Assembly: GCF_055900595.2 (NCBI RefSeq)
Contig: NZ_CM148325.1
Length of the DNA stretch: 64,000 nt
Direction: 5' to 3' (one strand)
Shown: piece after piece, positions 1 to 2,317 of the stretch
How the letters are laid out: every line of letters begins with the position of its first letter
Position numbering within the stretch: position 1 is the first letter of the stretch
Translations under genes and position numbers: made by a program
The notes under the pieces: model-generated
Database searches by the model: none
What the model was told of the DNA's origin: nothing
The model's input: only the letters and a program-made list of their open reading frames with translations

Positions 1-63
1 TCTGCGTCATTCCGGAGTTTATGAGGCACTAAGGCGAACATAAGAGATGGAATGAGCATCTAC
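1..63 (-). ncRNA. glmZ: GlmZ small RNA, 5' portion (gene runs off the window start)
   Basis: Reverse complement of 1..63 reads GTAGATGCTCATTCCATCTCTTATGTTCGCCTTAGTGCCTCATAAACTCCGGAATGACGCAGA, which I recognise as the 5' end of E. coli GlmZ; position upstream of aslA matches the known aslA-hemY intergenic location. Confidence 0.7.
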
Positions 64-487
64 TCGTTTAGTATGCCACAGAGAACCGGGAAATAACATC
101 CCTTAACACTTGTTATGAGATAATTCTGTAATCCTCTTTGCTTCCTGAGTAATAACTTCCTGAGTGAATATTTCTCCTGCGCACGATTCTACACATATAT
201 ATAATGAATAATAAAAGTCATTCAATTAATAATATATATATTAATTGCCATTAAAACTAAAAACAGCATCAATAATCAACGCGATATAACATCACCGCCT
301 TACATATCACCTGCGCCAGAGGTAGGATTGAAAACGCTCTCCTGATTTTCAAATTCATTATCTGGATAAATAAATAATTTATTTTCATCACTATTATTTA
401 TGCAATCATCCTGTCAGGGAGAGGGATCTCAATTATCAATGCTTAATTACGTCAACATTTTGACGACATGAAACCGGAGCATTTTGC

Positions 488-2143
488 ATGGAATTTTCGT
501 TTTCACCCAAACTTCTTGTTGTGGCTGTCGCCGCCGCTCTTCCACTCATGGCCAGCGCAGCAGATACCCCGTCAACCGCCACCGCACGCAAAGGCTTTGC
601 CGGATACGATCACCCAAACCAGTATCTGGTTAAACCGGCGACCACTATTGCCGACAACATGATGCCGGTGATGCAGCATCCTGCACAAGACAAAGAAACC
701 CAGCAGAAGCTGGCGGAATTAGAGAAAAAGACCGGTAAGAAACCGAACGTGGTTGTTTTCTTGCTGGATGATGTGGGCTGGATGGACGTTGGCTTTAACG
801 GCGGCGGCGTGGCGGTGGGTAACCCTACACCAGATATCGACGCCGTTGCCAGCCAGGGGCTGATTTTAACTTCGGCGTATTCTCAACCGAGTTCTTCCCC
901 AACCCGCGCCACGATTCTCACCGGACAATACTCCATCCACCACGGCATTCTGATGCCGCCAATGTACGGGCAACCGGGCGGTCTGCAAGGGTTAACCACT
1001 CTGCCGCAGTTGCTGCACGATCAGGGCTACGTCACCCAGGCCATCGGGAAATGGCATATGGGGGAAAACAAAGAGTCGCAGCCGCAGAACGTTGGCTTTG
1101 ATGATTTCCGCGGCTTTAACTCGGTATCCGATATGTATACCGAATGGCGTGATGTTCATGTCAACCCGGAAGTCGCCCTGAGCCCGGATCGTTCTGAATA
1201 CATCCAAAAACTGCCGTTCAGCAAAGATGACGTTCATGCCGTGCGCGGCGGTGAACAGGAAGCCATTGCCGACATTACGCCGAAATATATGGAAGACCTG
1301 GATCAACGCTGGATGGAATATGGCGTTAAGTTCCTCGACAAGATGGCGAAGAGCGATAAGCCTTTCTTCCTCTACTACGGCACTCGCGGCTGTCACTTCG
1401 ATAACTACCCAAATGCGAAATATGCGGGTAGCTCTCCGGCGCGCACCTCTTACGGCGACTGCATGGTGGAGATGAACGATATCTTCGCCAATCTGTATAA
1501 AGCACTGGAGAAAAACGGTCAGCTTGATAACACGCTGATTGTGTTCACCTCTGATAACGGTCCGGAAGCTGAAGTTCCGCCGCACGGTCGCACGCCGTTC
1601 CGCGGTGCGAAAGGTTCTACATGGGAAGGCGGCGTTCGTGTGCCAACCTTCGTTTACTGGAAAGGGATGATCCAACCGCGTAAATCTGACGGTATTGTCG
1701 ATCTGGCGGATCTCTTCCCTACGGCGCTGGATCTGGCAGGACATCCTGGAGCGAAAGTGGCGAATTTAGTGCCGAAAACCACCTTTATTGATGGTGTGGA
1801 CCAGACATCTTTCTTCCTGGGAACAAATGGTCAGTCTAACCGTAAGGCCGAGCACTACTTCCTCAACGGCAAACTTTCTGCTGTGCGTATGGATGAGTTT
1901 AAATATCACGTACTCATCCAACAGCCATACGCTTATACCCAGAGCGGGTATCAGGGTGGATTCACCGGCACAGTAATGCAAACGGCGGGATCGTCGGTGT
2001 TTAACCTGTACACCGATCCGCAGGAAAGCGACTCTATCGGCGTGCGCCATATCCCAATGGGTGTACCGCTACAGACCGAAATGCACGCGTATATGGAGAT
2101 CCTGAAAAAATATCCGCCGCGCGCGCAGATTAAATCTGATTAA
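488..2143 (+). CDS. aslA: arylsulfatase-like periplasmic sulfatase
   Basis: 551-aa ORF with N-terminal signal peptide ([24 protein letters not shown]) and sulfatase signature S-x-P-x-R ([12 protein letters not shown]); synteny with aslB. Confidence 0.9.
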
Positions 2144-2149
2144 GCCGGC

Positions 2150-2300
2150 GCTATCGCTACATCGGGCCACACTGACCTTGCCGGATGCGGCGTGAACGCC
2201 TTATCCGGCCTACAAGCCTTGCAAATTCAATAAATTGCAGCGTCCTGTAGGCCGGATAAGATGCGTCAGCATCGCATCCGGCAATCAACCGCAGGCGGCC
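2150..2300. repeat. REP/BIME-type palindromic repeat cluster between convergent aslA and aslB
   Basis: Repeated GCCGGATGCGGCGTGAACGCCTTATCCGGCCTAC-like units in both orientations (gccggatgcggcgtgaacgccttatccggcctac ... gtaggccggataagatgcgtcagcatcgcatccggc). Confidence 0.6.
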
Positions 2301-2317
2301 ACAAAATGGCTGCTTTT

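Follow-up and report, generated by a model that had tools for sequence, protein, structure and literature searches.

The glmZ start and its known sigma70 promoter, with a rare -10 variant, beside the AT-rich upstream region of aslA in an Escherichia coli chromosome

The small RNA gene glmZ (sraJ, b4456) of Escherichia coli K-12 lies between a divergent aslA and a convergent hemY. The sigma70 promoter of glmZ in Escherichia and Shigella has been described as ATGTTA-N15-tggCATAAT (Göpel 2011, Nucleic Acids Res 39:1294, PMC3045617), and the interval from -40 to +32 was enough for promoter activity in K-12. In that strain, mutation of three consensus bases of the -35 element strongly reduced glmZ expression and mutation of the right half of the -10 element abolished it; deletion of rpoN or glrR left glmZ unaffected, and GlrR did not bind a fragment spanning -424 to +32 (PMC3045617). 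The gene, its sigma70 promoter and its independence of sigma54 and GlrR in E. coli were already established experimentally in 2011. A second described group consists of the sigma54/GlrR (QseF) promoters of glmY and glmZ in Yersinia, Salmonella and most Enterobacterales, with which, according to the same authors, the glmZ promoters of Escherichia and Klebsiella are not alignable (PMC3045617).

The K-12 spacer between aslA and glmZ is also already known as a binding site of RNA polymerase and H-NS. It appears as the genomic SELEX entry 'aslA < HNS > glmZ', with an RpoD-holoenzyme and an H-NS site (Shimada et al. 2014, PMC3946193), and is itself listed among the type-A 'constitutive promoter' spacers of that study, with an H-NS mark. 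The promoters assigned to it there are computational best matches. The pick in the glmZ direction, TTGAGA-17-GATGAT, is not the verified glmZ promoter and differs from the one shown experimentally, and the pick in the aslA direction, made within the SELEX fragment, is the only promoter published for that direction (PMC3946193). For aslA of E. coli K1, an indirect dependence on RpoE has been reported in one paper.

In this study, we describe the corresponding locus at the left end of a stretch of 64,000 nucleotides (contig NZ_CM148325.1 of assembly GCF_055900595.2), which is called the window throughout and whose positions are used below. The chromosome of E. coli strain Z0117EC0005, from a dog in South Korea, contains positions 1-487 at 100% identity, and a match to them was found in 5,425 of 5,426 complete E. 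coli genomes. The window comes from an E. coli chromosome and opens inside glmZ, so that its edge cuts a known gene, with no new feature there. The gene order in Z0117EC0005 is hemX, hemY, a hypothetical ORF of 196 aa, the stretch matching the window, aslA and aslB; K-12 has the same layout minus the hypothetical ORF, with glmZ annotated between aslA and hemY. Elsewhere in the window, the proM-leuT-hisR-argX tRNA cluster, the trxA leader and a ribosomal RNA operon are consistent with this chromosomal region. The features of the locus are the following.

1..63, minus strand: nucleotides 1-63 of the 207-nt small RNA GlmZ (Rfam RF00083, K-12 identity); +1 is the G encoded at position 63, and the remainder lies beyond the left edge.
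64..487, no strand: divergent glmZ-aslA spacer, 424 bp, 33.5% G+C (composition; K-12 SELEX entry).
70..75, minus strand: -10 hexamer CATACT of the glmZ promoter (-12 to -7); the published and genus-wide form is CATAAT, and the C at -8 is window position 71.
76..78, minus strand: TGG before the -10 hexamer, its TG (-15/-14) in the extended -10 TGn position (sequence, published motif).
94..99, minus strand: -35 hexamer ATGTTA (-36 to -31), matching TTGACA at three of six bases, 15 nt from the TGG (published motif).
103..132, plus strand: candidate distal aslA promoter TTAACA-18-TGTAAT (hexamers at 103-108 and 127-132), a computational pick (PMC3946193).
141..170, plus strand: tandem direct repeat CTTCCTGAGTAATAA / CTTCCTGAGTGAATA, invariant in seven E. 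coli strains.
180..260, no strand: AT-richest core, about 20% G+C, where the spacer haplotypes mostly differ.
450..465, plus strand: polymorphic quasi-palindrome CGTCAAcattTTGACG that precedes the aslA ATG by 23-38 nt, with register shifts between strains.
475..478, plus strand: GGAG, which is probably the aslA Shine-Dalgarno sequence, 9 nt from the ATG and invariant in nine Escherichia sequences.
488..2143, plus strand: aslA, arylsulfatase of 551 aa (ORF; Pfam Sulfatase, E 4e-71; RefSeq annotation in the identical genome).

The minus strand from 63 to 1 matched positions 1-63 of the Rfam model GlmZ_SraJ, its 3' end cut. The match reached 63.0 bits, where the gathering score is 60, with an E value of 5e-14 in a search of 3 kb and of 1.1e-12 in one of the whole window. 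A competing match from the same Rfam clan scored lower and was dropped. Extension to the left in the identical genome recovered the full gene (L001, 2857-3063; 218.4 bits, model positions 1-214), which bears out the first-pass annotation in its view that only the first 63 nt of glmZ, starting at the true 5' end, are present in the window and that the body and terminator lie outside it. The recovered gene is identical to that of K-12 at 207 of 207 nucleotides, terminator included, and at all 63 within the window. It is glmZ rather than its paralogue glmY, as shown by hemX-hemY downstream (L001) and by the 100% identity to K-12 b4456, together with the 3' extension. Judged by its identity to the characterised K-12 RNA, it would activate glmS by base-pairing and be processed via RapZ and RNase E; the parts of the RNA relevant to pairing and processing are outside the window.

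Several variations were seen around this gene. The 196-aa ORF (L001, 2268-2858), which lies to the left of the window in Z0117EC0005 and is absent from K-12, has a stop codon that abuts the glmZ terminator and gave no Pfam match above the cut-off. Of 5,426 E. coli genomes, 689 have this ORF, which falls into two diverged alleles: 104 genomes carry it at 95% identity or above and 585 at 80-90%. About 1,890 of the 5,426 genomes deviate from the window within GlmZ nucleotides 1-22 or -1 to -7 (window 42-70), examples being a C-to-T change at nucleotide 14 in S1-CAM-01-A and a G at -1 in EC20017429. The E. coli O9:H10 strain Res13-Lact-PEB21-38-A (L008, 3001-3960) has a match to the window that ends at position 57, with IS1A next; in this strain IS1 has apparently taken the place of the glmZ promoter, the bases at the start of the gene and most of the spacer, and its aslA is a short pseudogene fragment.

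Immediately upstream of the gene, on the minus strand, the published sigma70 motif was found at 70-99, so that the AT-rich spacer does hold a glmZ promoter, as had been proposed from the sequence. Counted from +1 at 63, the strand reads ATGTTA, 15 nt (93..79), TGG (-15 to -13), CATACT, AAACGA and the G of +1, with the predicted start at 63. This is the published layout: ATGTTA, a 15-nt spacer, tgg and a hexamer that ends 6 nt before +1, of which five of six bases are identical to CATAAT. ATGTTA was invariant in seven E. coli strains and four other Escherichia species, and TG at -15/-14 was present in 105 of 117 enterobacterial species representatives. Compared with the K-12 promoter, there is no difference in the -35 hexamer, the 15-nt spacing, the TGG or the start site, whereas the -10 hexamer is CATACT instead of CATAAT and base -23 in the spacer is G instead of A. 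The cited promoter experiments were done in K-12 and would apply to the window strain by analogy. In the proposed arrangement, glmZ would run leftward from +1 at 63, driven by the sigma70 promoter directly upstream (99..94, 15 nt, 78..76, 75..70), and the rest of the AT-rich spacer would form the upstream and leader region of aslA. We regard this explanation as highly probable as a whole, that is, an E. coli glmZ start with its known sigma70 promoter and the AT-rich upstream region of aslA, with no involvement of sigma54 or GlrR.

A different assignment had been raised by the first-pass annotation, which quoted the string tggcatactaaacg from the minus strand of 64..85 as a weak TGGCA-type element and possible sigma54 promoter. 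The string is present, as the reverse complement of 65-78. If its TGGCA were the -24 box of a weak sigma54 promoter, which it resembles, glmZ would need sigma54 and GlrR/QseF, like its counterparts in Yersinia or Salmonella. Species-representative genomes were scanned with a pattern for the GlmZ 5' end, which gave 120 loci in Enterobacterales, 117 of them with enough upstream sequence. A -24 box (nGGC[AG]N) at -27 to -22 was found in 98 of the 117, a distribution in favour of a sigma54 promoter here as well. The 19 representatives lacking it belong to Escherichia (4), Klebsiella and Raoultella (7), Kluyvera (4) and Pseudocitrobacter (2), with Phytobacter massiliensis and Superficieibacter; the loss in Kluyvera, Pseudocitrobacter, Raoultella, Superficieibacter and P. 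massiliensis extends beyond the published Escherichia and Klebsiella. One record of the scan (L112), titled Chryseobacterium sp. 18061, carries an enterobacterial-type glmZ and promoter, which suggests contamination or a mislabelled assembly.

The register of the window sequence decides against sigma54. TGGCA starts at -15 in the window but at -27 in the true sigma54-type glmZ promoters, and at -15 to -11 it is part of the sigma70 tggCA: the TG extension, a G and the CA that begins the -10 hexamer. In the 93 loci whose box is precisely in register, GG stands at -26/-25 in 93 of 93 and GC at -14/-13 in 92 of 93, whereas the window has CC and GG at these positions. The window strain does have GG at -24/-23 where K-12 has GA, but this GG is 10 nt, not 11, from the sole GC, and is flanked by CC..TT, not T..CAC. 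A search of 1-487 for the GlrR site TGTCN10GACA with up to one mismatch found none, and a search for the sigma54 consensus (TGGCACN5TTGCW-like) gave no match in register, the matches over the whole window being at chance level. In K-12, glmZ shows no rpoN or glrR effect and no GlrR binding (PMC3045617). Since TGGCA is out of register, the GG and GC are replaced, and both the GlrR site and an in-register consensus match are missing from 1-487, the sigma54 promoter was rejected; its probability is minimal and it can be regarded as close to refuted. This check removes a tempting but wrong reading of TGGCA. Sigma54 and GlrR would play no part at the glmZ promoter of the window.

The description of 64..470 as very AT-rich was confirmed: its G+C content is 32.9% (33.5% for 64-487) against 51.6% for the window, and the string quoted as an example lies at 195-249, within the AT-richest core. 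Only 0.13% of all 424-nt segments in the 64 kb are as poor in G+C as the spacer. In E. coli the spacer occurs as two haplotypes about 6% apart, that of the window being the second, with an identity to K-12 of about 94%. They diverge mainly at 180-300, and about 84-168 is invariant in seven strains. Two stretches are conserved across Escherichia species: one comprises the glmZ promoter and some 45 nt upstream, the other the 85 nt before the aslA ATG. In S1-CAM-01-A seven base pairs (ATTGATA, read on the glmZ strand) are duplicated in tandem some 55 nt before the aslA ATG (L005 about 960-975, window about 430-437), within a block that is otherwise conserved across Escherichia.

Two sequence elements of the spacer were considered as regulatory sites and set aside. 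The direct repeat, with two copies of CTTCCTGAGT, was rejected as a conserved factor-binding site, the second copy not being kept in other Escherichia species. The arms of the quasi-palindrome at 450-465 are CGTCAA/TTGACG in the window, GTCATC/GATGAC one register over in K-12 and GACATC/GATGTC in E. albertii, so that perfect 6-bp palindromes occur in different registers depending on the strain, with a compensatory change in E. albertii. Its consensus fold has -5.8 kcal/mol with a positive (unfavourable) covariation term, one compensatory pair and several broken ones. As an RNA hairpin or operator the element was rejected, there being no support for an RNA structure and the sequence folding no better than shuffles (z -0.03). 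In its sequence, this polymorphism hotspot resembles template-switch mutation in quasi-palindromes, and the element is possibly a mutable quasi-palindrome.

The spacer could also contain an unannotated small gene or RNA, such as a 16-codon ORF at 204-254 (plus strand) or a minus-strand transcript ending at a terminator-like hairpin at 298..281. The ORF has the same length in both E. coli haplotypes, but it has no Shine-Dalgarno sequence and four of its 16 codons differ non-synonymously between them. The hairpin is the one terminator-like structure predicted, but its stem is not kept in K-12. The 85-nt block at about 84-168, invariant in the seven E. coli strains, might be taken as the trace of such a gene; it largely dissolves in other Escherichia species except beside the glmZ promoter. 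No Rfam family was found in the spacer, where the only match was a chance-level SNORD20 at 341-417 (E 7.3). The ORF and the hairpin were rejected as having neither supporting features nor conservation, and a hidden gene in the spacer appears very improbable. We retain the spacer as the upstream and leader region that aslA would use.

Downstream of the spacer, aslA was confirmed as the gene starting at ATG 488, an ORF of 551 aa with a Sulfatase domain. That the aslA promoter lies within 64-487, as the first-pass annotation had held for the AT-rich region, is plausible, and the sequence offers candidate positions for it. The published candidate at 103-132 is back to back with the glmZ -35 element and would imply a leader some 350 nt long; its -10 hexamer is not kept in E. 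albertii (TGCAAC). A promoter scan found no plus-strand candidate, the overall number of promoters being that expected by chance, and a looser scan gave many weak candidates, as expected in AT-rich DNA. No mapped aslA start was found in the supplementary data of two Cappable-seq papers, where neither aslA and glmZ nor the K-12 coordinates appear. In EC20017429 (L007, 1387-1524) aslA is an annotated pseudogene fragment of 138 nt that runs straight into the aslB region, which indicates that aslA is dispensable in some lineages. In the aslA-aslB gap (window 2143-2315), several below-threshold naRNA4 and ES036 matches were seen, typical of REP/BIME palindromic repeat elements.

In its composition the spacer fits the class of 'constitutive promoter' spacers in which its K-12 counterpart is listed, and it has the marked drop in G+C of H-NS-type regions (33.5% against 51.6%, within the lowest 0.13% of 424-nt segments). 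The high-affinity H-NS motif TCGATAAATT has a single match in the spacer, at 363-372, with two mismatches. By analogy with K-12, and on the basis of this composition and the in vitro SELEX entry, the spacer is most likely a promoter region silenced by H-NS, serving a gene with poor expression under laboratory conditions.

The -10 hexamer is where the window departs from its genus. CATAAT is present in all six other aligned E. coli strains and in four other Escherichia species, and the window has CATACT, an A-to-C change at -8. Among the 3,536 complete E. coli genomes that share window 42-70 exactly, nine extend through the C at 71; the roughly 1,890 genomes that differ elsewhere in 42-70 were left out of this count. 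The exact 50-mer at 36-85 is common to the same nine genomes. Since these nine assemblies come from dog, human and goat hosts, CATACT is a genuine allele carried by a small lineage and does not stem from a sequencing error.

Position 5 of the sigma70 -10 hexamer is the least constrained. The CATACT promoter retains the important -11 A and -7 T together with the TG extension, and from its sequence the change probably weakens the glmZ promoter mildly without abolishing activity. A harsher effect is also conceivable, in which the A-to-C change strongly cripples the promoter, so that little GlmZ is made or another upstream start is used, for example a TTGAGA-16-GATGAT match at 432..405 (minus strand). 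The change does fall in the right half of the -10 element, mutation of which abolished expression in K-12 (PMC3045617), but that experiment altered the whole right half and not a single base. Apart from CATACT, which is very rare, the hexamer does not vary across Escherichia; yet the variant persists in nine assemblies and is thus not lethal. With a -35 element that matches at only three of six positions, the promoter would rely heavily on its -10 region; the least constrained position is the one that changed, and the -11 A, -7 T and TG were kept. As for an alternative start, two upstream promoter-like matches were found against 2.1 expected in shuffled sequence. A strongly crippled promoter is on balance unlikely, and we favour the mild weakening.

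The sigma54-type promoters of other Enterobacterales also bear on the ancestry of the window promoter. They drive the same small RNA, glmZ, from the same +1, with a similar core at -17 to -1 (TGTG..ATAAT..ACG). The window differs from them in having no -24 box TGGCAC, no GC of the -12 box and no GlrR or IHF sites, and in showing no detectable similarity upstream of -18. At -17 to -1, the window matches the sigma54-type consensus TGTGCAATAATATACGC at 12 of 17 positions, and its mean identity to the 93 sigma54-type sequences is 8.8/17, against 4.5 for shuffles (maximum 8.6; 2,000 shuffles). At -40 to -18 the identity is 5.6/23, which is at chance. From these comparisons, the core of the glmZ promoter in E. 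coli appears to go back to the overlapping sigma54/sigma70 promoter of its relatives (TGGCAC-N5-GTGCAATAAT). Rather than descent, part of the similarity may reflect a convergence on the TGn-ATAAT form of a -10 element, since the two promoter groups could not be aligned in the published study (PMC3045617).

In Pseudocitrobacter GTGCAATAAT is intact and the -24 box is absent, and its glmZ promoter looks, by sequence, like an intermediate state. The gene aslA lies divergently upstream of glmZ at 8 of 16 loci without the -24 box, against 0 of 85 loci with it; the eight fall in three genera only (Escherichia, Kluyvera and Pseudocitrobacter). Under descent from a shared promoter, the -24 box and the upstream activator sites would have been lost and the GC of the -12 box would have become GG, the loss being seen in lineages with aslA beside glmZ. 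On one reading, the rearrangement that brought aslAB beside glmZ would have removed the activator sites and the -24 box and left the overlapping sigma70 promoter. In Klebsiella the -24 box has been lost without aslA adjoining glmZ, which hints at independent events in which the box was lost without prior arrival of aslA.

The importance of the locus is low in that everything essential at the glmZ start, promoter and spacer is already known, and only the -10 variant and the comparison of promoter ancestry are modest additions. Tentatively, and as a possibility well short of a probable outcome, each may be read further: CATACT would be a functional promoter-down allele that lowers the constitutive supply of GlmZ and shifts the set-point at which GlmY, GlmZ and RapZ control GlmS; separately, the glmZ promoter in E. 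coli may be a visible remnant of an ancestral sigma54/sigma70 dual promoter truncated when aslAB arrived. Across 117 species, the comparison suggests a path by which a small-RNA promoter under sigma54 control decayed to a constitutive sigma70 one. A natural one-base variant in a -10 box that is invariant across the genus is a ready-made test of how much the supply of GlmZ matters and, if the variant is promoter-down, it would alter, in a small lineage of E. coli from dogs, humans and goats, the control of GlmS, the enzyme at the first step of the amino-sugar pathway for the cell envelope.
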